Of a stretch of 61,255 nt of DNA, positions 2,470-25,570 are shown one piece after another (the stretch's first letter is position 1; every line of letters begins with the position of its first letter). The DNA is from an uncultured Micavibrio sp. (lineage in GTDB: Bacteria > Patescibacteriota > Minisyncoccia > Moranbacterales > GCA-2747515). The DNA lies in NCBI GenBank assembly GCA_964427825.1, contig CAYRUU010000001.1, forward strand, positions 1 to 61,255, given 5' to 3'. The position numbers and the translations under genes are program-made. The notes under the pieces are model-generated. The model saw only the letters and a program-made list of their open reading frames with translations. It was not told the origin of the DNA and ran no database searches.

Positions 2470-3210
2470 CTAATTTTTTCCATGCTTCTTAACAAAATCA
2501 CGGGCTTTTGCCACACGCTTTCTCTCACTCTCCTGTGCGTTATACACAATACCAAGCGAGATCGGTGCAATGTTGATGATCGGAATCATATCAATGATCA
2601 TCAAAAAAATACGCCACCACATGCGCGATCGCTGCTTCTGCACAGGTCCAACCTTCCGCAATTTCACGGTAATATACAATGACGTCAACAACGACATCCC
2701 GGGAATGGGGATAATGTCAATCAAATCGTCCAAAAAAGCAACCATGTAGAGCATTGTCCAATTCATGTTTCGGTATTTTGCAACGATCTTTTCCTGCTTG
2801 TTTAGTTCGCGCAGGATTGATGAAGATTGCTCCGCCCCCCCCTGTTGCTGCGCAATCGCGTCACGCTCATCATGAAGATCTTGTTTGATTTGTGCATCAG
2901 TGCGCGCCTGTGGTTGTGCCTGTGCTGCCACGCGACTGGCTGCAATCCCCTGCGAAACGGACTGCATATACCGCTCATGTGCCATATCCCGCTGTATTTC
3001 ATGTGCAGAAAGAGACCTTGATCGCACAGTGTCTTCTTGCGGTACCCGATCCCGATCATCCGCCTCACGCATAGTACGCTCCGCAGTAGCCTGTGCATAC
3101 CGTGCTTGTACGACGTTTTTTTGCGGATCAGTTGTATTCGTGACACGCGTATTGCGCAATGCACGCATACGTGACCGCTCCTCAGAAGTTGTCGGCTGTG
3201 CAGTTGCCAT
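2470..3210 (-). CDS. membrane protein (hydrophilic N-terminal half, C-terminal TM helices), function unknown
   Basis: 246 aa. The start codon overlaps the stop of the VirB4-like gene at 3210, consistent with translational coupling. A D-x-ID-x-IP-I motif is repeated in the hydrophobic part. Confidence 0.6.
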   Translation of the reverse strand: MATAQPTTSEERSRMRALRNTRVTNTTDPQKNVVQARYAQATAERTMREADDRDRVPQEDTVRSRSLSAHEIQRDMAHERYMQSVSQGIAASRVAAQAQPQARTDAQIKQDLHDERDAIAQQQGGAEQSSSILRELNKQEKIVAKYRNMNWTMLYMVAFLDDLIDIIPIPGMSLLTSLYITVKLRKVGPVQKQRSRMWWRIFLMIIDMIPIINIAPISLGIVYNAQESERKRVAKARDFVKKHGKN

Positions 3211-5060
3211 TATGCCATGCTTTCATCATTTTGCTCGTCAATTTCCTCTTTTGCTCGCTGGATCTCCTCCAATTGACGCGGATCGGATGTAATGATCTGA
3301 TCTTCACTGTATGACGCAATCACTTTGATCGCCGCATGTTTCGGACCAGCAAAGAGAATCCCTTCACCCACATTACTCTCCAAAAGCAGGAATTTCTCAT
3401 GATCCGTCAAAAAAAACGTCTCTGCAATCACATCCACCGACGCCGGCGATTGACGCAAGAGGAGTTGTAATGATGAGTTTGTCACGATTGGCTTGCCGTA
3501 GCGACTCATCATAAAGTCACTCACATCCTGCGTGATCGTCGTCAGTCCCGTATAGTATTTGCGACAGCGTTTGGCAATACCAAACATGAATGCCGCCGCG
3601 TCTTCATTTTGCATCATCACCCACGCTTCGTCCACCGCTACGATGCGTCGTGTCATATTGGTCCGCATCTCATTCCAGATAAACTGCAAGACGATATACA
3701 TGGCAATCGGGCGCAGTTCATCCTCCAAATCACGAATATTAAACACCACCATCTGATTACCGATCTCAATATTGGTCGGTTCATTCAAAAATCCCGAAAA
3801 AATACCCTCCGTATATTTGGACAAACGCTTCGCAAGTGAATCACCGCCATCCATACTGCGCAACACCTCATACAAATCCGACATTGTCGGATAACCGGCA
3901 TGTGGAATATTGCCAAAACGGCTCTTTTCCGAAATATCACGCACCGCATACGCCTCACGGATAGCGCGCTCCAGCACCGTATCTTCCTCCGGTGTTACAC
4001 TGCCCAGCATAATATGCAAAAGTCCAATCAAGCTCGCCACCGCATTGCGAAACACATCTTCCGGACGCTCGTCTTTCGGCACCTGTGGCAACTCAAAGGG
4101 GTTGATGTGCGCACTTGATCCCAGGGAAATGTGAATATACGACCCACCCACCGTTTGACACAGGTGCTTATATTCACTCTCCGGATCAATCACAATCACA
4201 TTGATTCCCATCATCAGCGACCGCAGTAGTTCCAGTTTGACAAAATAACTCTTACCACCACCAGACTTGGCAAAAACCACCATGTTGGCATTCTCCATCT
4301 GAAACCGATCAAAGAGAATTAGGCTGTTGTTGTGGCGATTGATGCCATACAAAATACCTTGATTGGATGATAGGTCCGCCGACACAAAAGGAAACGTTGT
4401 GGACAGTGGCGATGTGTTGAGGTTATTACCCACGTTCAGCATATCATCACCCAGCGGAATGGTTGACTGAAATCCGTGCTCCATGCGCAAAACAGCAGAT
4501 TTAGTATACACCAACTGCGCCTCCAAAATAGCCTCAATTTCATTTTTGCGTCTCTGCAACACGGTTTTTTTGTCGGCATAGATCGTCATATACAACCCAA
4601 AGCGGAAGAAGCGCTCTGTCCCCTGCTGCAAACTCACGCGCAAGCTTTCAATGTTCTGCACCGCCGTCTCCAACATCGGATCACTCACTTTTCCGGATTC
4701 CGCCTCAATATTGATCTGCGAATACACGCGTGCGGCGCTCTTTTTCAAGTTTTTCAACACTTCGCGTGTGTCCGCCGGATGAATAAACATCCCCACATCC
4801 ATGGGAAAATCAATATTGATGATCGGCGAAAACCAATTGTCACTCAAAAAACGCGGATAGGCAACTGTAAAAATGGTCGTAGCAAGCACCTCACCGACCT
4901 GAATATGGTCTGGTTGAATTTGCAACGCGCTCGGTGCAATCAATCCGCGCACCGTTGCCACGCCTTTCTGATAAAATTCCTCGTTGTCAAGAATTTCATT
5001 GCGCGGCTTTGCGGGTTTTTTTTGTGGCGCGGATTGTGCGTCTTTCTTCCTCAAAAACAT
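3210..5060 (-). CDS. virB4: VirB4/TrbE/ConE-family type IV secretion ATPase (central + ATPase domains)
   Basis: 616 aa with Walker A (FAKSGGGKS) and Walker B (RRIVAVDEAW). The length and layout are typical of Gram-positive-type VirB4. Confidence 0.85.
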   Translation of the reverse strand: MFLRKKDAQSAPQKKPAKPRNEILDNEEFYQKGVATVRGLIAPSALQIQPDHIQVGEVLATTIFTVAYPRFLSDNWFSPIINIDFPMDVGMFIHPADTREVLKNLKKSAARVYSQINIEAESGKVSDPMLETAVQNIESLRVSLQQGTERFFRFGLYMTIYADKKTVLQRRKNEIEAILEAQLVYTKSAVLRMEHGFQSTIPLGDDMLNVGNNLNTSPLSTTFPFVSADLSSNQGILYGINRHNNSLILFDRFQMENANMVVFAKSGGGKSYFVKLELLRSLMMGINVIVIDPESEYKHLCQTVGGSYIHISLGSSAHINPFELPQVPKDERPEDVFRNAVASLIGLLHIMLGSVTPEEDTVLERAIREAYAVRDISEKSRFGNIPHAGYPTMSDLYEVLRSMDGGDSLAKRLSKYTEGIFSGFLNEPTNIEIGNQMVVFNIRDLEDELRPIAMYIVLQFIWNEMRTNMTRRIVAVDEAWVMMQNEDAAAFMFGIAKRCRKYYTGLTTITQDVSDFMMSRYGKPIVTNSSLQLLLRQSPASVDVIAETFFLTDHEKFLLLESNVGEGILFAGPKHAAIKVIASYSEDQIITSDPRQLEEIQRAKEEIDEQNDESMA

Positions 5061-5799: not shown

Positions 5800-6246
5800 T
5801 TATTTTTGTTTTGCACGTTCACGAATAATTTTTTGGATACGCTCACTGCGATCTACACCGCGCGTGTCCAGTGTTGATGCCAGAGCGGCAACATCCTCTG
5901 TAGACAATTGGCGCTCCTCCTTCTTTTGTAGGCGCTGTTTTTGCTCATCCGTCTTTTTTGGCGGTTTCACCACTTCGTTTTGCCATGTATATACCTTTGG
6001 ACGAAAGAGATATGTAAATCCATAGCCGATGAATGTGATGAGAGCTACACCATTTGGGCGATAAAATGCCAACAGGAACGTCACAATCACTATTGGTACG
6101 GCAGCCAAATAGAATGTCGTTTTGTCTACAAGGTTCCACAGTGCCGCCAAAATCGTGCCGCCGGCAAAAAACCACCCGATATGCTTCCACGTAAACGGTC
6201 CGGCAATTTTATCTTCCACATCAATGTACTGTGGTACAATTTGCAT
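5800..6246 (-). CDS. PrgI/VirB3-like small T4SS membrane protein
   Basis: 148 aa. The N-terminus VPQYIDVEDKIAGPFTWKHIGWFFAGG followed by two hydrophobic helices resembles PrgI-family proteins. It ends 3 nt from the next gene of the block. Confidence 0.6.
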   Translation of the reverse strand: MQIVPQYIDVEDKIAGPFTWKHIGWFFAGGTILAALWNLVDKTTFYLAAVPIVIVTFLLAFYRPNGVALITFIGYGFTYLFRPKVYTWQNEVVKPPKKTDEQKQRLQKKEERQLSTEDVAALASTLDTRGVDRSERIQKIIRERAKQK

Positions 6247-6517: not shown

Positions 6518-7927
6518 TCAATTTTCCGCACGCGGTGAAAGATATTTCTTTGTTGATTGCAGTGTATGATGCTTTTTGCGCTCAATTGGCAAATTGTGAT
6601 TGGAGCTGAAAGAAATAACCCCATGTACCGATGATGCTTGCACAGCGGGCAAATTGTCCGGCGACTGTACTACTGGCGTCATTGTGCCATAACCGCTCTG
6701 CAAACCAATCGTACGTGGTGCTTCCACACTTTTGTGTTGCGGCGCAGCAACGCGCTGTTGTTTTTGTGTTCCGATGCCAATAGTGTTGCTCTGTGTGACT
6801 TTTTTTGGCATTGACTGCGTTTGTGATGGGCGCTTTTGGGACTCCAGAAGACCCTGTGGTGATCTATGCGTAGATGACGTGCTAGGCACACCCCCCTGCG
6901 GTCGCATCATTGGTGTTTGTCCCCATGTTGGTTGCGCTTCTGCTGGTTTCTGTATCTGTTGCGTCTGCGCCTGTGGCTGTGTCGCCTGTTGTAGTGGCTG
7001 TGGCGGTTTTTGCACATACATGCTCCGCTGCTGTGGCACAAATCCCCCCGATGACCGCACGCTCTGCACGGCATTGCGGATCGTATAATGCGCCGTATCG
7101 GTTGGAAAATACTCATTGCGACGCACCACACCCTCGCGACTCTGCATCCTATCTCGCACATCTTCCTCCTTCTGTGGTGCCACCACATGTGAATCATCAT
7201 CCATTGTCTGCGGCTGTGCATCAAAAACAATCATACGCTGATCACGATCAATGGTCAGTGGCACACCCTCATCGCGTGACTTGAGCATCATCGCCAACTT
7301 TTGCCGATCATCCTGCGACAATCCCCGCGTCGGCTCCGCGCGAAACACAAATTCCCCACGTTCAATCGCCGTGTGCTTACTTGCGCCCAACACCCTCTCA
7401 TACACCATAATCCAATTTTTCACACTTGGCCTCAGTGGTTGTGGCAACGATCGCATGAAAATCTGCACGCCCGTCACCGTTTGATCCTTGATCGCGGGGT
7501 ATTGACGGAGTGCCTGCTCCAAAGGTAGTGGCACCAGATGGCGTTGCGGTTGTTGTGGTTCACTTTCCTCTTCCTCATCGCGCTGTGGTACAGGTGTGAT
7601 GTTTACTATTTCTCGCAACATACGCAATCCCTCCTGCGGCGGAATCCCACACACTTGCGCAATATGCTGCACAAACGCATCCTCCGACACTTCGCGGAAA
7701 AAATATCTACGCACACTGCGGGACAATTCCTCCGTCTGCGCGTCATTGAGGTGGTATTTTTGCTCAATAGCAAAGATGTATCGCGCAATTTCTCGCGACT
7801 TAAGAATATCCTGTACCTTTTCTGGCAGTGCGTGAAAGTATTCCCATAGACGGATGTTTTCATTAGTAAAAAAATCCTTTCGTGAAAAACCCGCCATCAT
7901 TGGTAGATATTTTTGATCATCCTCCAT
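6518..7927 (-). CDS. hypothetical protein with a Pro/Gln-rich, probably disordered C-terminal half
   Basis: 469-aa ORF between the VirB6-like and PrgI-like genes. No recognisable catalytic motif. Confidence 0.6.
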   Translation of the reverse strand: MEDDQKYLPMMAGFSRKDFFTNENIRLWEYFHALPEKVQDILKSREIARYIFAIEQKYHLNDAQTEELSRSVRRYFFREVSEDAFVQHIAQVCGIPPQEGLRMLREIVNITPVPQRDEEEESEPQQPQRHLVPLPLEQALRQYPAIKDQTVTGVQIFMRSLPQPLRPSVKNWIMVYERVLGASKHTAIERGEFVFRAEPTRGLSQDDRQKLAMMLKSRDEGVPLTIDRDQRMIVFDAQPQTMDDDSHVVAPQKEEDVRDRMQSREGVVRRNEYFPTDTAHYTIRNAVQSVRSSGGFVPQQRSMYVQKPPQPLQQATQPQAQTQQIQKPAEAQPTWGQTPMMRPQGGVPSTSSTHRSPQGLLESQKRPSQTQSMPKKVTQSNTIGIGTQKQQRVAAPQHKSVEAPRTIGLQSGYGTMTPVVQSPDNLPAVQASSVHGVISFSSNHNLPIERKKHHTLQSTKKYLSPRAEN

Positions 7928-7964: not shown

Positions 7965-9986
7965 CTACGGCGCAACACCCATGGGATTTGGTGAGGTATA
8001 CCGCATTTCAGCTTCAGCAAAAGCCTGTCTCTGCTCATTTGATTGTGCATCAAGAAATATCTGCTGACCACGTGCAGTGAGTTGACCATGTCTACTTGAC
8101 ATGGCAACGTAGGATGCTTGTTGCCTATTATATTCATCAGATTCCACAGCCGCCCTCGTATCACGATATGCTGCTGCTGCACGTTGCTTTGCTAGCACTT
8201 CCGCATTCATACCACCAAACACATTCTTCGCCATGTCATTGATTTCATTTTGTGATAGCGGTACAAAAGTACTCCCACCACCTGCCGCAACCCTTTGACG
8301 TCTTGCCTCTTCACGAGAAATATCCATTTCCACAACCTTGTGTCCATAACCACTGTTACGCATCTTCTTCTTTACAGCCTTTTGCGTTTCAGTATCAAGT
8401 TTATCAAATGTCTTGATGAGTTCATCAACCTCCTCATTTAACAAGTCTACTTTCTTTTCCGAGAGAACTTGTGCTTTTGCTTCATCTTCAACATCCGTTG
8501 CCGTATTAAGTGGTGCTTCCCGCATCTTCTTTTTTTCTTCCTCTATACGCCTACCCTTACTACGTGCCAACGCATCCTCATCCCCACCCCATCCCGTAAT
8601 TTTTCCAGCAGCCCTTGCTAATCTACCGGAATCCGGCTTCTGACCAATACTAGTCCCAAACTGCTGTACACCACTGCTAAATTTATCTTTTGTCGCCGCA
8701 AATCTCTTCCTTCTCTCATCTTCAGCATTTTTAAAGCGCTGTCCAACACCGCTCACAATACCTGTTGCGGCAGCAATGGGTCTATCAATGCGTGTAACCG
8801 ATGCGGCACCCTTACTCATACCAAGCGCCGCACTCTTACCAAACCCCTGTAACCGCCCCCTCGCTTTTGTTGCCATACCCAAAACCGCACTAGACGCCCC
8901 ATCCCCCATAGCACCCACTGTCATAATGCCCGTCCACAAAATAATCAACGACACCACATAAGTCAACACATTCGGAACCACACCATTCTTGTTCGCTGCC
9001 TCCATAGCCCCCTTAAAATACCCATCGCCCATGCCCTGCAAAATACTCACGGAAAGAACAAGGACAAACAGTAAAATCGGTCCTGTGGATAAGTATTTAA
9101 TAAACTGATTCCACCACTTATTTGCATAGGAGCTTGTCATGGGAAATGCCGCCATTGTAAACCCTGCCGATGCAAAAACCAAAAGCAATGCCAAAGCAAC
9201 AACACGAATCACAAGCAAGAGTGCAACTGCCATCACCACAATCAAGAAGAGGAGACCGATAATGATCCCCATAAAAATATTTGTCCATGAATCCGGTGCC
9301 CCCGCTGAATTTACATCCTTTCCAACAAGAATATTTGCAAATCCCGTACCACTACCAATCGTACTCATCAATGCACTTCCCGATCGTATATCACCACCTC
9401 CAACACCACCTGCGTCCATGATCCACATCATAGTCACATTGGACACATCGATCAACACCCGTGCAATCGGCCACGAAAAATTCACCAAAAGCGCCATCAC
9501 CACAATCATCACCCACGTATTGCGAATATGATAGCGTGAAATCTGAAAGACAGTGCAAAACGCCGAATAGAGAAGGAAAAAAATAAAGAACATATTAAGA
9601 AAATCCCGCACCGTCTTCCACCCCATATACACACCGGGATTATTCCGAATTAAGTCCATAAATGTCGGCTTCAAGGACCAATCAATCAAACCCACCGCCA
9701 ATGCAATAAGATTAGCAATGAGTTGTACGAAGCCGAAAAATAACTCCTTTAACATATTACCAAAATCTGGTAAGGGGTTTAGTTTGGATAAATTTCCCAG
9801 ATCAGGTTTTCCTGTGTCGGGTATCGTATATAAGCCACCAGGTTGTGTGAAACCCTGAAATTGTCCCATATTCGACCCCGTAGATCCCTGAGACCATACT
9901 ACTTCAGTAAAAGATAAATGAGTAGTAATAGTTAATAAAAAAAATAATATATATATATATATTTTATTTTTATAAATAGGACTCAT
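7965..9986 (-). CDS. TrbL/VirB6-like polytopic membrane protein with a charged coiled-coil C-terminal tail
   Basis: 673 aa with a signal-like N-terminus, at least 6 long hydrophobic helices in the first 400 aa, then a Lys/Glu/Ala-rich tail. Its position next to VirB4/PrgI supports the call. Confidence 0.55.
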   Translation of the reverse strand: MSPIYKNKIYIYILFFLLTITTHLSFTEVVWSQGSTGSNMGQFQGFTQPGGLYTIPDTGKPDLGNLSKLNPLPDFGNMLKELFFGFVQLIANLIALAVGLIDWSLKPTFMDLIRNNPGVYMGWKTVRDFLNMFFIFFLLYSAFCTVFQISRYHIRNTWVMIVVMALLVNFSWPIARVLIDVSNVTMMWIMDAGGVGGGDIRSGSALMSTIGSGTGFANILVGKDVNSAGAPDSWTNIFMGIIIGLLFLIVVMAVALLLVIRVVALALLLVFASAGFTMAAFPMTSSYANKWWNQFIKYLSTGPILLFVLVLSVSILQGMGDGYFKGAMEAANKNGVVPNVLTYVVSLIILWTGIMTVGAMGDGASSAVLGMATKARGRLQGFGKSAALGMSKGAASVTRIDRPIAAATGIVSGVGQRFKNAEDERRKRFAATKDKFSSGVQQFGTSIGQKPDSGRLARAAGKITGWGGDEDALARSKGRRIEEEKKKMREAPLNTATDVEDEAKAQVLSEKKVDLLNEEVDELIKTFDKLDTETQKAVKKKMRNSGYGHKVVEMDISREEARRQRVAAGGGSTFVPLSQNEINDMAKNVFGGMNAEVLAKQRAAAAYRDTRAAVESDEYNRQQASYVAMSSRHGQLTARGQQIFLDAQSNEQRQAFAEAEMRYTSPNPMGVAP

Positions 9987-10078
9987 ACTTTTACAATCAA
10001 CTCAATATCTAATATATAAAATATAATAACATAAAAACCCCAATATTAGAAATATCAGGGTTTATAATATAGCTATCC

Positions 10079-10561
10079 CTATTCATCATGACCGAAATTA
10101 TTTGCCATCTTAATGAGAGTACTTCTTCCAACGGGATATCTCTCCATTGCTTCAATATTATTCTTGAGGGCCATCACATACAGTACCGACTGCTCAAGAA
10201 CGGAGTAGGTACCATCATTTTCCAGAAATACCATGTATGCCGTTGCCATAGCATCACCATATCCACTACAGTTCAATATCCACTCCATTGCAATATAGTG
10301 GTAATTAAGATAATTACTATAGCCAATCGTATCGATAAACTTAATAGACTGCACTTTAATCTCACCTTTACTTGTAACAGCAAGGTAATCCACAATACGC
10401 TTTTTAATCTCATTGCGTATTGTCACAGATTTGGAAATATCCTTCACGACTGCCGTATTGGAAATAATAACATCCTGCTCTTTTTTCCCTGGACACCCCG
10501 CGAGAATCCCTGTAATAATGACACACACACATCCAATGATAACCCTATGTATTATATTCAT
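10079..10561 (-). CDS. lipoprotein, function unknown
   Basis: 160 aa with a signal peptide ending in the lipobox ILAGC. The gene is AT-rich. Confidence 0.6.
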   Translation of the reverse strand: MNIIHRVIIGCVCVIITGILAGCPGKKEQDVIISNTAVVKDISKSVTIRNEIKKRIVDYLAVTSKGEIKVQSIKFIDTIGYSNYLNYHYIAMEWILNCSGYGDAMATAYMVFLENDGTYSVLEQSVLYVMALKNNIEAMERYPVGRSTLIKMANNFGHDE

Positions 10562-11041
10562 GACTCCCTCCCAAGATTTTCATGAAGAAAAGAAAATCCC
10601 AACCGTATCACAAAATACTCTTGTATTTTTAATGAACGATTGGGATCCGTTTATCCCATAGAAGTTACCGATGGTATATTCTGTAACTTTTATGGAAATT
10701 ACGGATATCGGAGTATTATAGCATTGTTTTTATTTCCTGTCAATAGTCCTTTTTTCTTTTATATATTGTGTTTTTTATTATTGTATCATTTCACTGTATC
10801 ACTCCAACCGAGATGTGTAGGACTTAATACTACTGTCGCCAGACACGGAGAATTTTTTCCTTTTACAGTATAGATATGATCATGCGTCGGACATCGTCAA
10901 TGGAATCATCTATGTCTAATATACCACGTAATCCTCTGTTATGTAAGTAGATAACCTCTTTATGGCAGTACGTATATCTCACTTATCTATTTAATAACTA
11001 ATACTCTATAATTATATAAATCTATTATTAGTTATTAGTAC

Positions 11042-11279
11042 TGTGGATAAGTAGATAAGTGGGGAAAATCTCTCAATGATCGGGAAAAAGTGTCGTGGAG
11101 GATTGTTTACGAATTGACGGCGCGTTGTGGGGAAAACGGAGGTGAAATATTTATGGATGCATTACTCACAGATTTCACTGAAAATACACAATGTTGTACA
11201 GGGTTAGTGATATAGTTATACAGGAATTATATGGAATTTATCCACAGGTTACTGTGGATAAGATACAAAAATGTGAATA
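11042..11279. promoter_or_regulatory. DnaA-box cluster beside an AT-rich inverted-repeat tract (candidate oriC or DnaA-controlled site)
   Basis: Perfect boxes: TGTGGATAA at 11042-11050, TTATCCACA at 11238-11246 and TGTGGATAA at 11253-11261. A 1-mismatch box, TGTGAATAA, lies at 11271-11279. The tract 10990-11040 is almost pure A/T and carries the inverted repeat TAATAACTAATA/TATTAGTTATTA. Confidence 0.5.
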
Positions 11280-11486
11280 AGTTGTGGAGGTGTGTATAGC
11301 CATTCTATTGCGCGATGATTGAAAGAGGGAGGATAATATTGTATTGATTTTTGTGGGATGATGTACTATACTGGGAATTTGTGGGTTCGTATAGTATAAA
11401 CTGAAGGTGTCAAAATACATTCGACATGGAAAGAGGGAATCGCGGTGTGGTAATGCTTTTTTATATAAACAAGTGAAAAATAGCGT

Positions 11487-12449
11487 ATGTCAGAGGAATT
11501 TTTGGTGGATGAAACAGGTGTGGGCATGCGTGTGGATCGTTTTTTGGCCGAGAAGTATACAGATCTAACACGTGGAGAAATCGCGCGGATGTTGCGCGCT
11601 GGGCGGATTGTTGTGGATGGCACACAGGTGAAGCCAAGTTTTATCCTGCGCGGTGGCGAGCATGTTTTTGTGGGAGAACAAGAGAAAAAGGAAGAAATAG
11701 TGGTGCCGCACCATGTGCTACCTATGGATTTTGTGGAAAACACAAGGGATTTCGTGGTGATTGATAAGGCGCGTGGTGTGCAGGTGCACCCAAGTCATCG
11801 TGAAAAACAGAAAACACTTGCCAATGCACTTGTGGCACGTTTTCCGCAGCTTGTTGGGATAGGTGATGATGCGATGCGTCCGGGGATTGTGCATCGTTTG
11901 GATAAAGACACAACAGGGCTGATGGTGGTGGCAAAGTCGCAGAAGGCATTTGAGGAGCTCAAAAAAGCGTTTCAGCAGAAGCGTGTGCACAAAGTATACC
12001 ATGCCTTGGTATGGGGTGATGTGAAAGATGTGGAGGGCGTGGTAGATGCGCAGATTGCGCGAGCCACATCATATACCAAGCAAAAAATTGCCTTTGGAAA
12101 ATATGCTGGAGATGCCAAAGAGGCGCGGACGCGTTACCGCGTATTGGCGCGCTATGGTGTGCGTGATGGTGGTGTGGTGTCGTTGGTGGAGCTGTACCCC
12201 GAGACGGGACGTATGCATCAAATCCGCGTGCATATGGCGCATATCGGGCACCCGCTTGTTGGTGATGTGCGTTACTATCGCAAAACAGAGCGAAAATTAT
12301 CTGCACCACTACCAAAAACATGTGATCCATCCACATTTTATCTGCATGCAAAGGAATTGCGTTTTATGCTTTTTGATAAGGAATATCAGTTCACATCTGA
12401 CTATCCGGATCGATTTCGGTGTGCCATTGATTTTTTGGCGAAAAACTGA
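11487..12449 (+). CDS. rluD: RluA/RluD-family 23S rRNA pseudouridine synthase
   Basis: 320 aa with an N-terminal S4-like domain (RVDRFLAE) and the catalytic motif HRLDKDTTGLMV. Confidence 0.9.
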   Translation: MSEEFLVDETGVGMRVDRFLAEKYTDLTRGEIARMLRAGRIVVDGTQVKPSFILRGGEHVFVGEQEKKEEIVVPHHVLPMDFVENTRDFVVIDKARGVQVHPSHREKQKTLANALVARFPQLVGIGDDAMRPGIVHRLDKDTTGLMVVAKSQKAFEELKKAFQQKRVHKVYHALVWGDVKDVEGVVDAQIARATSYTKQKIAFGKYAGDAKEARTRYRVLARYGVRDGGVVSLVELYPETGRMHQIRVHMAHIGHPLVGDVRYYRKTERKLSAPLPKTCDPSTFYLHAKELRFMLFDKEYQFTSDYPDRFRCAIDFLAKN

Positions 12450-12633
12450 GATCAATACAGTGTTTTAATAGTAGTTGATGATGTCTTTTTACTGATGAGG
12501 GTTCCGAAGTGCGTTCGGGATGATGATCAATACATCAGAAATGATCATAAGTGTGTCACGGATGATACGTGTTGTATTCCTTTCACAATCATAAAAATGA
12601 AATCATTGTAAAAAGTAGGTGTGCTAAAAAGAT

Positions 12634-13041
12634 ATGACCAAGAAAAATATCAATCATATGTATGCGGTGAAGCGATCGCGGGCTGGACTGGGGCTTTTTG
12701 CTGTGTGCAATATCACCAAAGGATCGTGGATTATTGAATATGTGGGGGAACGTATTTCTCACGCGGAGGCGGATCGACGTGGTGGACGGTATTTGTTTAG
12801 TGTGAATGACGTAGTGGTGGTGGATGGCAAGGGGCGGGATAATATTGCGCGCTACATCAATCACTCTTGCGCGCCAAATGCGGAGGCAGTGATTGAGGAT
12901 GATACCCACATCATGATCTATGCCATTGCAGATATTGCCGCCGGCACAGAGATTACCTATGATTACGGATCGGAATATGTTGAAGAGTTTATCACGGGAC
13001 GATGTCAGTGTGCACGGTGTTTGTGTGACAAAAATGTGTAA
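12634..13041 (+). CDS. SET-domain protein (putative lysine methyltransferase)
   Basis: 135 aa with the motifs RYINHSCAPN and GTEITYDYG and a Cys-rich post-SET tail (CQCARCLC). Confidence 0.8.
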   Translation: MTKKNINHMYAVKRSRAGLGLFAVCNITKGSWIIEYVGERISHAEADRRGGRYLFSVNDVVVVDGKGRDNIARYINHSCAPNAEAVIEDDTHIMIYAIADIAAGTEITYDYGSEYVEEFITGRCQCARCLCDKNV

Positions 13042-13057
13042 TAGAGATCTTAATAGT

Positions 13058-13085
13058 AAAAACCCCTCCACGGTGAGGGGTTTTT
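13058..13085 (+). terminator. Rho-independent terminator (bidirectional shape)
   Basis: AAAAACCCCTC-cacggt-GAGGGGTTTTT, immediately after the SET gene. Confidence 0.75.
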
Positions 13086-13095
13086 GTATAGTGTG

Positions 13096-13167
13096 AGCGA
13101 GTGAGCGGAATCGAACCGCCATTTCTACCTTGGCAAGGTAATGTAATAACCATTATACGACACTCGC
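13096..13167 (-). tRNA. tRNA-Gly (GCC)
   Basis: Hand-folded cloverleaf: acceptor GCGAGTG/CACTCGC, anticodon loop TTGCCAA, T-loop TTCGATT. Confidence 0.85.
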
Positions 13168-13238
13168 CTGCCTAAATTTTTTCTCAAAAAACTTGGGCGG
13201 ACGTGCGTTGTGACATGTGATTTTTTAGGTGGTAGTTG

Positions 13239-13310
13239 TGGGACTAGCAGGATTCGAACCTGCGACCAAGCGGTTATGAGCCGCGCGCTCTACCTCTGAG
13301 CTATAGTCCC
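13239..13310 (-). tRNA. tRNA with CAT anticodon (elongator Met or lysidine-modified Ile2)
   Basis: Acceptor GGGACTA/TAGTCCC with a paired 1:72 (not initiator-like), anticodon loop CTCATAA, T-loop TTCGAAT. There is a C:T mismatch at 27:43. Confidence 0.8.
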
Positions 13311-13416
13311 AGGTGCTTCGCTTGTCGCCACGCCACCATGTTATCCGATTTTTCCTCCCACGTCAATCACTATTGGTGTGGAGAGAATGCTGCATGTGCA
13401 CCACGTACAATTTTTG

Positions 13417-13488
13417 TGCCGAGGGAGAGAATCGGACTCTCGACACAAGGATTTTCAGTCCTTTGCTCTACCACTGAGCTACCTCGGC
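13417..13488 (-). tRNA. tRNA-Phe (GAA)
   Basis: Acceptor GCCGAGG/CCTCGGC, anticodon loop CTGAAAA, T-arm GAGAG-TCCGATT-CTCTC. Confidence 0.85.
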
Positions 13489-13566
13489 TCAGCACAAAAA
13501 CTGTACGGAGTGCATCGTGTTGTTTTTTGGTGGTACGTGTGCATCATAGCATATTACCACGTCTTG

Positions 13567-13640
13567 TGCACGCTGAGAGATTCGAACTCCCGACCCTCTC
13601 GGTGTAAACGAGATGCTCTAACCAGCTGAGCTAAGCGTGC
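13567..13640 (-). tRNA. tRNA-Val (TAC)
   Basis: Acceptor GCACGCT/AGCGTGC, anticodon loop TTTACAC, T-loop TTCGAAT. Confidence 0.85.
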
Positions 13641-13691
13641 GTTTCTTGCATAGATGGGGTCGCAACCCTTTTTATCATTCTCAATTTTCTG

Positions 13692-13776
13692 TGCCCAGGG
13701 CGGGACTTGAACCCGCACACCCCGTTAGAGGTCTAGGCCCTCAACCTAGTGCGTATACCAATTCCGCCACCTGGGC
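13692..13776 (-). tRNA. tRNA-Leu (GAG), long variable arm
   Basis: Acceptor GCCCAGG/CCTGGGC, anticodon stem-loop CTAGG-TTGAGGG-CCTAG, variable arm, T-loop TTCAAGT. Confidence 0.85.
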
Positions 13777-13818
13777 ATATCATCCACATCGCATACGGCG
13801 ATGTGGAGAGGAAAAATG

Positions 13819-14253
13819 TTATGCTGTTTTTTCCGCAGACTTCTCTTGTGATATCTCTTCTTTTAGTTCCTCTGTTTTTGTGAGTGTGATGTCTGTTTTC
13901 ACATCGGAAAGATCAGTGTATTTGAAGCGTAGTGCCTTACTTGCTTTGTCGCGCACGTAGTAGAGTTTGGATTTACGCACCTGTGCACGTTTCACGAGAG
14001 TGATTTTATCAATATTTGGTGAAAACATGGGGATAATGATTTCCACACCCACACCATTAGATACTTTGCGCACCGTTAGTGTTGGTGAGCTGCTCTGACG
14101 CCCTTTGACGGCAATGATCATGCCCTCAAAAACCTGTATGCGTTCCTTCTCTCCCTCCTTGATTTTGCGGTGAATTTTGACAACGTCGCCGGCGCGCAGA
14201 TCCGCCACTGCCGGTCGCTGAGAGGCATTGAATGTTATGATTTCGTTGTGCAT
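13819..14253 (-). CDS. rplS: 50S ribosomal protein L19
   Basis: Core LRAGDVVKIHRKIKEGEKERIQVFEGMIIAVKG...VGVEIIIPMFSPNIDKI..VRKSKLYYVRD. Start trimmed to the ATG at 14253 (MHNEII); the ORF-track N-terminal extension has poor composition. There is an acidic/Lys C-terminal extension. Confidence 0.9.
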   Translation of the reverse strand: MHNEIITFNASQRPAVADLRAGDVVKIHRKIKEGEKERIQVFEGMIIAVKGRQSSSPTLTVRKVSNGVGVEIIIPMFSPNIDKITLVKRAQVRKSKLYYVRDKASKALRFKYTDLSDVKTDITLTKTEELKEEISQEKSAEKTA

Positions 14254-14529
14254 AGCAACAATATGATTAATAGATGACTTTTCCCAAGGGAAAAAAAGAT
14301 TGTGAAACATGGGATGATAAAGCAGAAAAACTGTCTCCGTGACAGCCGTCAGCATGTCCCCCGTTTTGCAAACCTGTCGTTTATGATAGGACAGGTTTGC
14401 GTTTTCGTCAATATCTTTGCCACATCTTGCCAAAGAATGTGTTTTGGTGTATGATAAGCGGGTAATTGATTATCGTTCTCGTCTGGGGCGGTTGGCACAC
14501 AACGGTCCTATGGCAGAAGCAAAACATGT

Positions 14530-14805
14530 ATGGCATTGACAACGCGCCAAAAGAAGAATGCAACGAAAGATGTGAAGCGGCATGATAGCGACACAGGGTC
14601 ACCAGAATATCAAATCGCCCTCTTCACCACACGGATCAATAAACTTACCGCACACCTCAAGAAAAACAAACAAGACTTTCACTCTCGTCGCGGACTACTC
14701 AAAATGGTGGCAAAGCGCAAGCGACTTATGGACTATCTTGTGCGCACCGATCAAAAAGCGCACAAGGCGGTTATAAAAAAACTTGGTTTGCGGGAGCGTA
14801 AATAA
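14530..14805 (+). CDS. rpsO: 30S ribosomal protein S15
   Basis: 91 aa with GSPEYQIALFTTRINKLTAHLKKNKQDFHSRRGLLKMV. Confidence 0.92.
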   Translation: MALTTRQKKNATKDVKRHDSDTGSPEYQIALFTTRINKLTAHLKKNKQDFHSRRGLLKMVAKRKRLMDYLVRTDQKAHKAVIKKLGLRERK

Positions 14806-14852
14806 TACGCTCTTTTGCATTACGATGATATAATTGGAACATATTTTTTCTT

Positions 14853-15350
14853 ATGAAACACAAAGATCAACGCGTTGCTGTTTTGGTGGATATTCAAAAC
14901 CTCTATTACAGTGCACGTGTCCTCTATGGTAAAAAGGTGAATTTCAAAAACCTCCTCACAACATCGGTGGCAGATCGTAAATTGATTCGTGCCATCGCTT
15001 ATGGCATTTCCACAGAAGAAGCGCAGGAAGAGACGTTTTTTGATGCTTTGGAAAAAGTGGGCTTTGAAGTCAAGGCAAAAGATTTACAAATTTTTGCCGG
15101 CGGACAAAAGAAGGGTGATTGGGATGTTGGTGTTGCCATTGATGCTGTAAAATTAGCAAAGACAGTGGATGTGATCATCATTGCATCTGGTGATGGTGAC
15201 TATATTCCGCTTGTGGAATATATCCAAAACACCAACGGGTGTCGCGTGGAAGGGATTGCCTTTGGAGAATCCACAAGTACGCGCCTCATTGAATCACTCG
15301 ATGACTTCACCAACCTCTCATCTGATAAGCGGAAATTTCTCATCTCGTAA
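14853..15350 (+). CDS. NYN/LabA-like domain protein (putative RNase)
   Basis: 165 aa with VAVLVDIQNLYYS and IIIASGDGDYIPLVEY, typical of DUF88/LabA NYN domains. Confidence 0.8.
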   Translation: MKHKDQRVAVLVDIQNLYYSARVLYGKKVNFKNLLTTSVADRKLIRAIAYGISTEEAQEETFFDALEKVGFEVKAKDLQIFAGGQKKGDWDVGVAIDAVKLAKTVDVIIIASGDGDYIPLVEYIQNTNGCRVEGIAFGESTSTRLIESLDDFTNLSSDKRKFLIS

Positions 15351-15390
15351 CACATGTAGTGTAGACAGCGACAGTTGTATAGAATGAAAC

Positions 15391-15417
15391 AAAACACGGC
15401 AACAAGCCGTGTTTTTG
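15391..15417 (+). terminator. Rho-independent terminator
   Basis: ACACGGC-aacaa-GCCGTGT followed by TTTT, after the NYN gene. Confidence 0.7.
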
Positions 15418-15436
15418 TGTATAACGTGTGCATAAT

Positions 15437-15464
15437 AAAACCACCCTGACGAAAGGGTGGTTTT
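15437..15464. terminator. bidirectional terminator-like hairpin
   Basis: AAAACCACCCT-gacgaa-AGGGTGGTTTT with A and T runs on both sides. Confidence 0.65.
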
Positions 15465-15798
15465 ATTCAGACATATTCCGGCGAATCTTTAGGTCTACTC
15501 TCCACAATATGTCTGGAGTAAGATTCACCGGGCGCCAAGTCGCCCGAAAAAAGATATTTAATGGGCATGGCGCCCGGTATAGTTCGCATGCACGAACATG
15601 TAACCTTTAGAGATTTTTTCGCACCGGGTGAGGTATGCGATCAATCTACTGATGGAACATGTATTTTCTGTACATGCATTTTTACGCACGGTATTCCCAG
15701 GTTACTTTTACCTGCGTATTCTTCCACCATCCTACGGATTTCCCCTAAGTTACTTTAAAGAACAATTCCACATTTTTTTTGTATTTTTGTTTGTGGAG

Positions 15799-15823
15799 AT
15801 AATCCTCGCATTGCGAAGATTAT
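15799..15823. repeat. 25-bp near-perfect palindrome
   Basis: ATAATCCTCGCA-T-TGCGAAGATTAT with one mismatch between the arms. Confidence 0.6.
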
Positions 15824-15904
15824 GGTTTTGTTTTTGTTTTATGCAAAGCCGGGAACTTTGAAAGGCTTTGCGTACGACAATGGTTATTGTCGTAGTAGGA
15901 CAGG

Positions 15905-15955
15905 GGAAGAATTTCCAATCACAAATAGGGGGAAATTGTGATTGGAAATTCTTCC
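15905..15955. repeat. perfect 20-bp inverted repeat (hairpin, 11-nt loop)
   Basis: GGAAGAATTTCCAATCACAA (15905-15924) pairs with TTGTGATTGGAAATTCTTCC (15936-15955). No adjacent T-tract, so it is not a canonical terminator. Confidence 0.8.
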
Positions 15956-16175
15956 TCCATCATGTCATGTTGTGAAAGTACGTACCTTTCGCTCTCTGAT
16001 CAACCTTCTATCACAAGTATACCATTTTTGCAGCATCGCGTCAAAGGTAGTATGTTGTTTTTGTTTTAAACAAAGGGTTTTTGTGTGTTTATTGACAATA
16101 CAAAAGTGCATGTATGTAAAATGTGAAAAAAAGAAAGAAAAACTCTTTCAGAAAAAATAGATTATTATACACAGG

Positions 16176-16214
16176 TTATCCACAATTCCACAACTTATCC
16201 ACATCTTTGGATAA
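16176..16214. promoter_or_regulatory. second DnaA-box cluster
   Basis: Perfect TTATCCACA at 16176-16184 and 16195-16203, plus an inverted 1-mismatch box TTTGGATAA at 16206-16214. Confidence 0.5.
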
Positions 16215-16221
16215 AGAGCAG

Positions 16222-16263
16222 CGAAAAACAACTCCGCACAATACATGGAGCGCTGTGCGGAGT
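16222..16263 (-). terminator. Rho-independent terminator of the 16279-17412 gene
   Basis: On the minus strand, CTCCGCACA-loop-TGTGCGGAG is followed by TTGTTTTT. Confidence 0.7.
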
Positions 16264-16278
16264 GTTCGTGTGGTGCGA

Positions 16279-17412
16279 CTAATAGGTAAAGTCTGGAGAT
16301 GGTTCTTGGTAGGCTGTTTTTTCATGTAGTGTGTCAAAGATGGTGCGTAAGGTGTCTTTTGATGTGCCCACAAGCCACTGATTGTTGAATACGGCATAAT
16401 CAATAGAATATGTCTCCTCCTCATTGAGATTAGCGTAACGCAGCGGCTTGTTGTAGTAGACATTATCGCGGAAAATAATGGGATGAGCTGACACGGTATC
16501 GGATGGAAGGAATAGCGATAGCGCCTGCGGGAGAAGTTGCTCGTGCATTGCGAGTGTGGACTGTAGTGTGATGGGATCTTTGGTATTTACTACGAGACCG
16601 AAACGTATACCGAGCGTTGGGTCGGCATGGGCATATAGTTCAAAGTTTCTGTCAAGAACAGACAGGATGTCTTCCGTTAGACCGAGTTGTGCTGCAATAG
16701 TAAATTGATGAAAAGAGACGGGCGCTGATGCTGTATCGGTGACAATGAAGATGATGGGTTTTGTGGGAGATTGTTGCGGAAGCTTTGTGCGGATTGTGGA
16801 TAGTTGTGTGGTGATGTCGGTTGCGACGGAAGGGTTGTTGATATCAATTGTAAAATAGTTGGGCATGTCTAGTGAATAGGTTGACGGTTCTGGAATGGTG
16901 ACTGCGGGTGTCGTGGGTAGTTCTATAGCGGGAGGTGTTTCCACCGCATCGGAGGGTGTGCTGTCTGTAGGCTTTAGGAAAATGTAGTAGTACACACCGC
17001 CTGCAACAAAGAGGATGAGAAGCACGGTGATGGTGATGACGATGATTTTTCTACCAGGTGATGCGCCCTTTTCCTGCGGCAATTCAGGATTTTTGAGATC
17101 GGCGGTAATATCAGAGATCTCATAATTGATCTTTTCTGGCCCATCACTTTGAGATGGCGCAAAAGTGTTTTTGCCAATACCGTCTGCTTCCGAAGTGGGT
17201 GTATCGGAAAGAAAGGGGTTTGGCTCGGAAGACTGTGCCGGTGCCGGTGTTGCGCGCAAAGGTGTGTTTTGCGGGAGTTGCTGCGTCTGTTTTGGTGCTG
17301 TCTTGCGCGTGGCGTTGTCGCTTTGCATTGTGTGAACGTCAAAAGTTGTGGGGGAAGATTTTTGATTTGTGTTTTTCATAGTGGATGTATGAAACAAAAG
17401 ACATTGCGTCAT
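16279..17412 (-). CDS. membrane-anchored hypothetical protein (disordered N-terminus, one TM helix, extracytoplasmic C-domain)
   Basis: 377-aa ORF. The start may instead be the internal MKNTNQ at 17379. TM helix: IIVITITVLLILFVAGGVYYYIF. Confidence 0.65.
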   Translation of the reverse strand: MTQCLLFHTSTMKNTNQKSSPTTFDVHTMQSDNATRKTAPKQTQQLPQNTPLRATPAPAQSSEPNPFLSDTPTSEADGIGKNTFAPSQSDGPEKINYEISDITADLKNPELPQEKGASPGRKIIVITITVLLILFVAGGVYYYIFLKPTDSTPSDAVETPPAIELPTTPAVTIPEPSTYSLDMPNYFTIDINNPSVATDITTQLSTIRTKLPQQSPTKPIIFIVTDTASAPVSFHQFTIAAQLGLTEDILSVLDRNFELYAHADPTLGIRFGLVVNTKDPITLQSTLAMHEQLLPQALSLFLPSDTVSAHPIIFRDNVYYNKPLRYANLNEEETYSIDYAVFNNQWLVGTSKDTLRTIFDTLHEKTAYQEPSPDFTY

Positions 17413-24070: not shown

Positions 24071-24474
24071 ATGCAGGGGCGTCTTCCTCCCATTGTAGCG
24101 GTTTTTGGGAGATTTTCAACTGGTAGAGAATTTATTAAAATATATTATAAACAATATGTCAAGTTTATACTTCCCTACGGCAACAATTGTTCCACGTGGA
24201 ACAAGGCCAGGCGGCTTGCAGTGCTCTTTTGATGCAAAAAATATTAGTAAAATGTTCCACGTAGAACAATGTATACTAGCCTTACTCTGTGGGATCTCAA
24301 TTTTTATTATGGGCAAGAATTATTTTGGAAGATTTTTGCGTCAAAGAGGTATTTTTTAATGTTCCACATGGAACATTAAGGCATAGCACAGATATTTTCT
24401 CGTAAAAGATCACAAAACATAGTTCGTAATACGCTGCTATGATTGTTCCACGTGGAACAGTGGACTCCTTTCAC

Positions 24475-24567
24475 AATATTCATACCATGCCGAGCTTGTT
24501 TCGGCATTCCTGTTATAACGTGAATTCCGGAGCACATCCTGAGTGATACAGTATTTTTACACAAAAC
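24475..24567 (+). repeat. copy A of a ~100-nt interspersed element inside the palindrome array
   Basis: Aligns with copies B and C. Shared blocks are ATTCATAyCAT.., GTTTC.GG.A and TCCGGA.CACATC..GA.TGA..C..TATT.TTACrCA.AA. Starts 16 nt after the palindrome at 24444. Confidence 0.6.
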
Positions 24568-25254
24568 TGAAGTAGTATTTAATATACTTTTCATCCTTAT
24601 CTCACGTGGAACAATTGAAAGGTCAAAACATGATACACTGCAGTTTTTTGTAAGTTTAATCCTATATTTTGCCAATGTAGTAGATCATATAAGGAAAAAT
24701 CATACAAAAAAATGTACAAATAGGCTTTTTGATAAGAGCTAACCTTAGCGTACTACAACTGTTCCACGTGGAACACGAAAAATGCTTATTTTGTGATTTT
24801 TTGATAAATGCTGTAAAAATGTTCCACGTGGAACAAAAACAGGTAACGTACTATGCTTTTTTGATGAAAAGATACCATTAAATTGTTCCACGTGGAACAA
24901 TTGGCAAAAAACACTTCTATAAACGACATTTTTAATACCCTAGATGATTCAAAGAGGGTTGTTATGCTTTTTGTATGCGACCAGATACCGCCCCCATGTT
25001 CCATGTGGAACATGGGAAAAGTAGGCGTTTTTTAAGATGTTTATTTGTAGATCTCTTAAATAAAAACCTCAATTGTTCCACGTGGAACAAAAACAGGTGT
25101 TATATTATGCAATTTTGATTCGAAAATACCCCTAAAATGTTCCACATGGAACATTTTAGGGGTTATTATGGTAGAAATGATCGTATATTTATTATAAAAT
25201 GCCAAAATAGATGTCTCTGGCGATGTTCCACGTGGAGCATCGCGTCTGTTTAAT

Positions 25255-25356
25255 CATATTCATATCATACTGAACGTTTCTGGGCAGTTTTTCCGGTGGT
25301 ATAAAGCCTGAATTTCGAACCATATACTGGAATGATGCAATATTCTTACGCACAAC
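25255..25356 (+). repeat. copy B of the ~100-nt interspersed element
   Basis: Starts 16 nt after the palindrome at 25224, in the same orientation as A and C. Confidence 0.6.
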
Positions 25357-25570
25357 CATAGAAACAAAGGAAAAAAGAAGTATTTATATTATGTAGATAT
25401 TCCTGTTTCTGCGAAAAGTTCCACGTGGAACAATGTGGTATGGAATATTTATATGGGAGCTGTTTTTAATGAGGGATTTTTGTTGGAGTGATATAGTTTT
25501 TTATGAGGAATATTTTATGTGCAGAATTATTGTTCCACGTGGAACAATGTGGTCGTCCAATAGTATTTAG

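Follow-up and report, generated by a model that had tools for sequence, protein, structure and literature searches.

Replication of the chromosome in an uncultured ultra-small bacterium (Candidatus Moraniibacteriota, Patescibacteria) very probably starts in a gene-free stretch at positions 10562-11486 of the DNA analysed here, a window of 61,255 nucleotides which is the complete contig C1 of a 917-kb assembly in 65 contigs (G000). We put the probability at about 85% that positions 10979-11280 form the core of a chromosomal DnaA-dependent origin (oriC), which by synteny would lie ~23 kb from dnaA. An initial annotation of the window had proposed the stretch as a candidate replication origin, and the proposal is supported by a cluster of DnaA boxes, an adjoining candidate DNA-unwinding element (DUE), a switch in GC skew, conservation within the genus, the arrangement in a congener with a complete genome (G006), and a parS array 13 kb away. 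The box cluster is located in non-coding DNA with the AT-rich candidate DUE next to it, the cumulative GC skew has its minimum here, as it does at the corresponding site of G006, and the genome encodes both the cognate initiator and the helicase (DnaA and DnaB). Adjacency to dnaA and dnaN, which is a usual but not an obligatory trait of an oriC, is lacking.

The interval is bounded by a minus-strand gene for a protein of 160 aa (10079-10561) and by rluD (11487-12449, plus strand), and no open reading frame (ORF) of at least 61 aa lies entirely within it. The initial annotation was correct in calling this 0.9-kb interval gene-free, as well as in describing nine minus-strand ORFs on the left and a diverging rluD on the right. 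The perfect DnaA boxes (TTATCCACA/TGTGGATAA) it listed at 11042, 11238, and 11253 are all present. The first of these (11042-11050, minus strand, reading TGTGGATAA on the plus strand) is proximal to the DUE, keeps its position in eight genomes, and has the same polarity toward the AT-rich side as box R1 of Escherichia coli oriC. It is accompanied, at an offset of 8 bp, by a degenerate tandem box with two mismatches (AGTAGATAA, 11050-11058, minus strand). The other two perfect boxes, at 11238-11246 (plus strand) and 11253-11261 (minus strand), are arranged head-to-head as TTATCCACAG-gtta-CTGTGGATAA, with the second being perfect in the closest relative, G008, too. A box TGTGAATAA had been placed at 11271; it exists, with one mismatch, but occupies 11272-11280 (minus strand), and its homologue in G008 is a perfect TGTGGATAA. 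Within the same 340 bp as these three perfect boxes and the one-mismatch box, at least six boxes with two mismatches lie between and around the stronger ones. A two-mismatch box also forms part of the conserved block GCGTTGTGGGGAAAAC (11122-11137, minus strand; direct repeat D6), which is identical in G008 amid diverged sequence, and GTGGGGAAAA is present also at 11059-11068.

Perfect TTATCCACA boxes are frequent throughout this genome, with 42 observed against ~7 expected, a six-fold excess that consists mostly of dispersed singletons. Nine of them are on C1 (9084, 11042, 11238, 11253, 16176, 16195, 26178, 34246, and 59202). This corrects an earlier count of five perfect boxes in the window, all in two clusters, as only five of the nine are clustered and four are singletons. 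The chance expectation of ~0.5 boxes per window given at the same time is right for the base composition (0.55), but the genome-wide excess makes ~2.8 perfect boxes per 61 kb the fair background. At the empirical box rate, a cluster of three boxes in 220 bp should arise by chance 0.002 times in the whole genome. Ori-Finder-type scoring, which the initial annotation had asked for, was carried out with a value of 1 for each perfect box and 0.4 for each one-mismatch box within 500 bp. It ranks C1:11042-11280 first in the genome (score 3.4), followed by C1:16165-16214 (2.8) and by C8:7538-7664 (2.4), the last of which is the dnaA promoter on contig C8.

The proximal box adjoins an AT-rich tract at 10979-11041 with an A+T content of 86-90%, which is the proposed DUE. 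The near-pure A/T tract described earlier is indeed present, with 50-bp windows of at least 86% A+T covering 10979-11042 and reaching a maximum of 90%, which places them in the top 0.007% of the genome's 50-mers. By nearest-neighbour stability, no 40-step window in the intergenic region is weaker than that of the tract, which belongs to the least stable 0.003% of the genome. An equivalent tract of 55-95 bp is found in seven congeners. Both inverted repeats named in the initial annotation were found, TAATAACTAATA/TATTAGTTATTA at 10992-11003/11026-11037 with 100% complementarity and CACTTATCTATTTA/TAAGTAGATAAGTG at 10980-10993/11048-11061, and the single strand of the tract folds better than shuffles. 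As functional elements these repeats are unsupported, since even G008 does not share their left arms.

Abutting the proximal box on its 5' side, at 11023-11041 on the plus strand, lie the DnaA-trio-like repeats TAT-TAT-TAG-t-TAT-TAG-TAC, which read CAT-GAT-TAT, one extra base, and GAT-TAT-TAT in the 3' to 5' direction from the box. The rule for DnaA trios of the basal unwinding system (BUS) calls for at least three NAN trios with the consensus 3'-GAT-5' at a distance of 0-16 bp from a box of at most two mismatches (PMC8287927). In agreement with this rule, TAT-TAG-TAC touches the box and TAT-TAT-TAG is 10 nt off, on the strand that the polarity of E. coli predicts. The motif ATTATTA[CG]T?TA[TC]TA[GC]T has a single occurrence in the 917-kb genome, at 11024, and occurs once at each of six congener origins, including that of G011, which had been left out of the motif definition; the G010 origin carries a one-base variant. 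In 2.7 Mb of fetched DNA, the motif has no further occurrence.

Strand composition switches at the same place. The cumulative GC skew of C1 has its minimum at 11022, within the AT tract. Skew is strong in each contig (|0.13-0.19|), and all large contigs are monotonic except C1. A change-point scan of all 65 contigs for skew switches with arms of at least 2 kb identified C1 as the only one with a V-type switch, and on C8 the cumulative skew climbs monotonically from base 35 to the end without any switch. The initial annotation had proposed this analysis as a way to refute the origin, and its outcome favours the site at 11 kb. As all nine genes of the left arm share one direction, an effect of gene orientation was tested by the GC skew at third codon positions (GC3). 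The gene set was limited to frames that outscored all frames overlapping them in tblastn searches of sampled DNA from two relatives; a version with raw long ORFs was contaminated by antisense shadow ORFs, and the homology-validated frames gave the same result. Among 442 validated genes, the 341 that are co-oriented with the skew of their contig have a coding-strand GC3 skew of +0.24 (93% above zero), and the 101 anti-oriented genes have one of -0.33 (99% below zero). This implies that the skew tracks the replication strand, whatever the direction of the gene. The right arm of the window, with 17 plus-strand and 16 minus-strand validated genes, has positive skew throughout. All seven validated genes of the left arm are on the minus strand and have a coding-strand GC3 skew of +0.21 to +0.53, which makes the minus strand the leading strand to the left of 11 kb.

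The comparison with relatives covers eight genomes within genus g1 (G000, G008, G009, G006, G011, G007, G004, and G010) with GC contents of 28-47%. In all eight, a core is found upstream of an operon resembling a type IV secretion system (T4SS). With the T4SS on the left, the core runs from the AT tract through TATATAAT, two variable bases, ATTATTA[C/G]T(T)ATTAGT, and the tandem boxes to an A-rich run. The tandem pair T[G/A]TG[G/T]ATAA + GT[G/A]GATAA is conserved across the genus, and further boxes are present within ~230 bp beyond the core. A clear local change from negative to positive skew is seen in all of these genomes except G004. G008 has a contig syntenic with C1, on which the skew minimum is at 10435 and perfect boxes are at 10551, 10761, and 10780. 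A comparison of G000 with G008 shows little conservation in the flanking spacer at 10770-10990 but near identity in the core and the box blocks, a pattern that points to selection on the latter. In G009, G011, G007, G004, and G010, where the region was located via VirB4, an A+T tract with DnaA boxes precedes VirB4 by 5-7 kb. What is conserved next to the origin is the T4SS operon. Use of rluD as an origin marker was rejected, as boxes adjoin rluD at just one, that of G008, of the 80 loci compared from many taxa; in G004, skew around rluD is negative throughout and perfect boxes are absent within ~20 kb.

In G006, whose genome is a single 1.286-Mb contig, rluD (493.6-494.6 kb) is followed by five perfect boxes at 496260-496370 and a local skew minimum at 496572, with dnaA 22 kb to the right at ~518.8 kb. 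Over the roughly two thirds of this genome for which skew was determined, in 20-kb pieces, two switches are seen, a single V-type one at 496.5 kb and a single Lambda-type one at ~684 kb. The region at 480-537 kb is collinear with the reverse complement of C1, then C48, then C8 of G000 (tblastx). By this synteny, the origin of G000 would be upstream of dnaA at a distance of ~11 + 4 + 7.7 = 23 kb, an interval that includes the T4SS-like operon.

The dnaA locus itself lacks the features of an unwinding site. As the initial annotation had stated, the window contains neither dnaA nor dnaN; both are on C8 in the order rnpA-rpmH-dnaA-dnaN, where dnaA encodes a protein of 482 aa with DnaA_N, Bac_DnaA, and Bac_DnaA_C domains. 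DnaB is encoded on C3 and ParB on C14. The 353-bp rpmH-dnaA spacer reaches at most 70% A+T in any 50-bp window and the dnaA-dnaN spacer measures 42 bp, so that this locus has boxes but nothing DUE-like. Its boxes are an inverted perfect pair, TTATCCACA-N14-TGTGGATAA, in the dnaA promoter (C8:7538-7569, boxes at 7538 and 7561), which is probably autoregulatory. In three independent assemblies (G000, G008, and G004), dnaA is found ~8 kb from a contig start. The assembly breaks (1-300 of the window, both ends of C48, and the start of C8) fall into a paralogous family of genes for large surface proteins between the T4SS block and dnaA. To the right of the proposed origin is the parS array at 24188-25546, with seven sites of at most two mismatches from TGTTTCACGTGAAACA at a distance of 13-14.5 kb from the proximal box. 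No further site at that threshold exists elsewhere in the 917-kb genome, which confirms the parS-like array 13 kb away as the genome's sole parS cluster.

Several observations weigh against an origin at 11 kb. The bare (NAN)x3 pattern is permissive and, taken alone in AT-rich DNA, is weak evidence. The assembly is fragmented and a second skew switch could be hidden in a gap. The dnaA promoter holds 2-4 perfect boxes in every genome examined. The adjacency of C1, C48, and C8 rests on synteny and on shared repeat 55-mers: C1 and C48 end alike and the starts of C8 and C48 are nearly identical, but these 55-mers are the borders of a repeated paralogous gene and not a head-to-tail overlap, so the join is drawn from synteny. 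In G024, a complete genome of another genus, a 36-kb zone of near-zero skew (510-546 kb) begins a short way upstream of the T4SS and ends ~10 kb beyond dnaA; it is flanked by strongly negative and strongly positive arms of roughly symmetrical extent and leaves the position of the origin ambiguous. In G022, three perfect boxes are found on C4 (8074-8174 of the fetched piece), ~5.7 kb upstream of virB4, without a skew switch. Finally, the skew arms of G006 are grossly unequal, with ~187 kb against 1.1 Mb, an inequality not predicted by simple bidirectional replication from this site. The G022 cluster has an 86% A+T tract at the same relative position as the origin of genus g1, and skew is negative on both sides of it. 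A generalisation of the origin pattern to the whole family was rejected, as the pattern is inconsistent outside genus g1.

The inequality in G006 has more than one possible source. Skew is positive only at 496.5-684 kb and negative over the other 1.1 Mb, which gives apparent replichores of ~15:85. This may be due to a single large inversion ending near the terminus, to misassembly, or to real asymmetry. The V-type and Lambda-type switches are ~187 kb apart on a chromosome of 1.29 Mb, and contig C41 of G000, which spans the homologous Lambda region and is collinear with it, has a weak Lambda switch of its own at ~4.1 kb. It is conceivable, though doubtful, that the unwinding module lies beyond the T4SS operon, with only regulatory boxes at dnaA, and that the origin serves two very unequal replichores. 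If this were true, it would imply either a fork trap near the origin or replication that proceeds mostly in one direction.

Among the other explanations, the one that survives best is a DnaA-regulated divergent promoter or a DnaA-titrating locus of the kind of datA or the DnaA-box clusters (DBCs), with the true origin elsewhere, most plausibly at rpmH-dnaA-dnaN on C8. We consider this improbable, although there are facts it can call upon. The boxes at 11238-11280 are ~70-100 bp upstream of a tentative promoter-like site for rluD (11344-11372, plus strand, 9/12 matches), the inverted perfect pair at C8:7538/7561 makes the dnaA promoter the third-best cluster, many of the 42 boxes in the genome are dispersed, and the similar cluster in G022 has no skew switch. 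Against this stand the lack of an AT-rich tract in the rpmH-dnaA spacer, the shortness of the dnaA-dnaN spacer, and the lack of any skew switch on C8. Over the 23 kb that separate the two sites, GC3 skew of the leading-strand type is directed away from 11 kb and not from dnaA. Moreover, a DUE and a conserved trio module are not required for titration, but both are present here and are under selection genus-wide. A titration site would be expected to have boxes without an unwinding element and to be located off the strand switch, whereas the boxes at 11 kb adjoin the AT-rich tract and coincide with the switch.

A second explanation is that the skew switch is a boundary artefact, in which a T4SS-like block was inserted or inverted and retains the composition of its former orientation, with the boxes being incidental. 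The visible left arm is only 11 kb long with all genes in one direction, T4SS genes are often mobile, and relatives do contain local inversions in which the skew is flipped, for instance at 472-478 kb in G006. Still, this is very unlikely. Of 29 other genomes in the family, 28 have VirB4, and its identity falls gradually from 95% to 64%, in line with the T4SS of Patescibacteria being described as chromosomal and vertically inherited (PMC12102498), so that the supposed T4SS-like island of the initial annotation is not an island. The junction is kept in eight genomes of 28-47% GC, which makes it old enough for the skew to have re-equilibrated, and by synteny skew of the leading-strand type goes on through C48 (+0.12) and 32 kb of C8. 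The two alternatives that had been named together with the candidate origin, a titration or regulatory site and the edge of an island, consequently fit worse than an oriC, given the DUE, the skew switch, and the vertical inheritance of VirB4. An oriV from an integrated element, plasmid or conjugative, that is tied to the T4SS genes is hardly credible: plasmid origins too can pair DnaA boxes with an AT-rich tract and a T4SS-like cluster adjoins the site, but the nine left-arm ORFs include no Rep gene or relaxase, there are two-copy repeats only and no iteron array, none of 72,556 plasmid records is similar, and the site coincides with a chromosome-scale skew switch near the chromosomal parS array.

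DnaA titration is a better description for the second cluster of the window than for the oriC candidate. At 16165-16214, two perfect and two one-mismatch boxes are found in 50 bp immediately beyond the terminator that follows the minus-strand gene 16279-17412, bordering a hairpin-rich gene-free region of 930 bp. The cluster is conserved in G008, is not syntenic in G006, and has no skew switch. It fits the class of DnaA titration and reactivation sites (datA, DARS, and DBCs) better than the cluster at 11 kb does. By its sequence it is probably an auxiliary DnaA-binding site which is not part of the origin, possibly a DnaA reservoir or a regulatory site.

For the proposed oriC, the arrangement of the elements suggests a sequence of events in which DnaA binding, unwinding, and firing would all take place at 10979-11280. 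Intact four-domain DnaA would bind the high-affinity boxes at 11042, 11238, 11253, and 11272 as well as the weaker boxes between them. From the tandem pair 11042/11050, DnaA would then oligomerise onto the neighbouring TATTAG (DnaA-trio-like) repeats. The 60-bp, 90% A+T tract at 10979-11041 would melt and receive the DnaB helicase. The leftward fork would cross the T4SS-like operon and, continuing by synteny into C48 and C8, reach rpmH-dnaA-dnaN ~23 kb off, while the rightward fork would pass through rluD and then the parS array.

The genes around the origin candidate include further features of the T4SS side. The left block of nine co-directional minus-strand genes starts with the 160-aa gene at 10079-10561, which has no Pfam family, and contains genes for a PrgI-like protein (5800-6246) and a VirB4-like ATPase (3210-5060), both on the minus strand. 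A perfect sigma-70 consensus promoter, TTGACA-17-TGnTATAAT, with 12/12 matches and an extended -10 element is located at 10715-10743 on the minus strand and its sequence is kept in G008. It points leftward, away from the proposed origin and into the T4SS-side operon, which also encodes a lipoprotein. At the head of this operon is a structured 5' leader of ~147 nt (10562-10708, minus strand) with a folding energy of -50.1 kcal/mol (z = -6.4 against shuffles). It forms two long hairpins, is strongly conserved in G008, and matches no Rfam family; a role as regulatory leader of the operon, or as a small RNA at its head, is possible. An Rfam scan of 10000-17000 gave only five tRNAs and sub-threshold noise, with no known RNA in the origin region. 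The most A+T-rich stretch of the contig, with up to 98% in 50 bp, is found at 9903-10055 between two genes of the left block; it contains a small hairpin with a G/C stem and is not adjoined by DnaA boxes.

To the right, rluD is identified as a pseudouridine synthase gene by the Pfam families PseudoU_synth_2 (6.6e-31) and S4. Beyond it, five tRNA genes stand in a row at 13096-13776 (minus strand), and the ORFs listed over them are spurious. Antisense shadow ORFs are common in G000 and mislead gene calls based on the longest ORF: the real gene at 12634-13041 (plus strand), which encodes a 135-aa SET-domain protein (Pfam, 5.5e-25), is overlapped by a longer antisense shadow ORF at 12589-13122 (minus strand).

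An origin at this site would provide a sequence-level candidate for uncultured ultra-small Patescibacteria, whose replication lacks experimental study. It would mean that dnaA is not an origin marker in this genus, which affects growth-rate estimates from metagenome coverage as well as the checking of assemblies. The core of boxes, trios, and AT tract is short enough for tests with purified DnaA. A 2025 survey reported T4SS genes of Patescibacteria near dnaA, which it took as a proxy for the origin (PMC12102498). The gene neighbourhood described there, a VirB4/PrgI cluster followed by rnpA-rpmH-dnaA-dnaN, is the same as in this genus, but the module of boxes and DUE and the skew switch are here located beyond the T4SS operon and not at dnaA. 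As module and switch are on the far side of the operon, the T4SS-like genes would be the first unit to be transcribed outward from the origin on the leading strand, where gene dosage is highest.

The site resembles two known origin systems in part. With the BUS of the Bacillus subtilis type (Richardson et al. 2016/2019, Pelliciari et al. 2021; PMC6669920, PMC8287927) it shares tandem boxes, at least three NAN trios with 3'-GAT-5', an AT tract, and additional boxes upstream up to ~230 bp, and in both cases the module is the most conserved intergenic part. It differs in that the candidate module of G000 is not between dnaA and dnaN, in a spacer between box and trios of 0-2 bp instead of ~13 bp, and in the 8-bp offset of the two boxes, which overlap by one base. 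A bipartite oriC of the B. subtilis/Helicobacter pylori type is a poor match, as the second cluster is 4.9 kb off across rluD, tRNAs, and ribosomal genes and not across dnaA, and is absent from that position in G006.

The initial annotation considered an oriC detached from dnaA unusual; such origins are uncommon, yet they are well known, with E. coli as an example (PMC8287927, PMC6669920, PMC10225481). The E. coli oriC, between mnmG/gidA and mioC, differs from the G000 site, which has no GATC/SeqA-type sites or 13-mer repeats, is ~23 kb from dnaA, and has a T4SS-like operon and rluD as neighbours. In common with G000, it is detached from dnaA, is located between divergently transcribed genes, and has the same polarity of the DUE-proximal box, with the order DUE...TTATTAG-N13-TGTGGATAA checked on the MG1655 record, and the dnaA promoter of E. 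coli likewise keeps autoregulatory boxes. Taken together, the sequence features at 10979-11280 very probably represent an ordinary DnaA-type oriC with a Bacillus-like unwinding module, set apart from dnaA as in E. coli.

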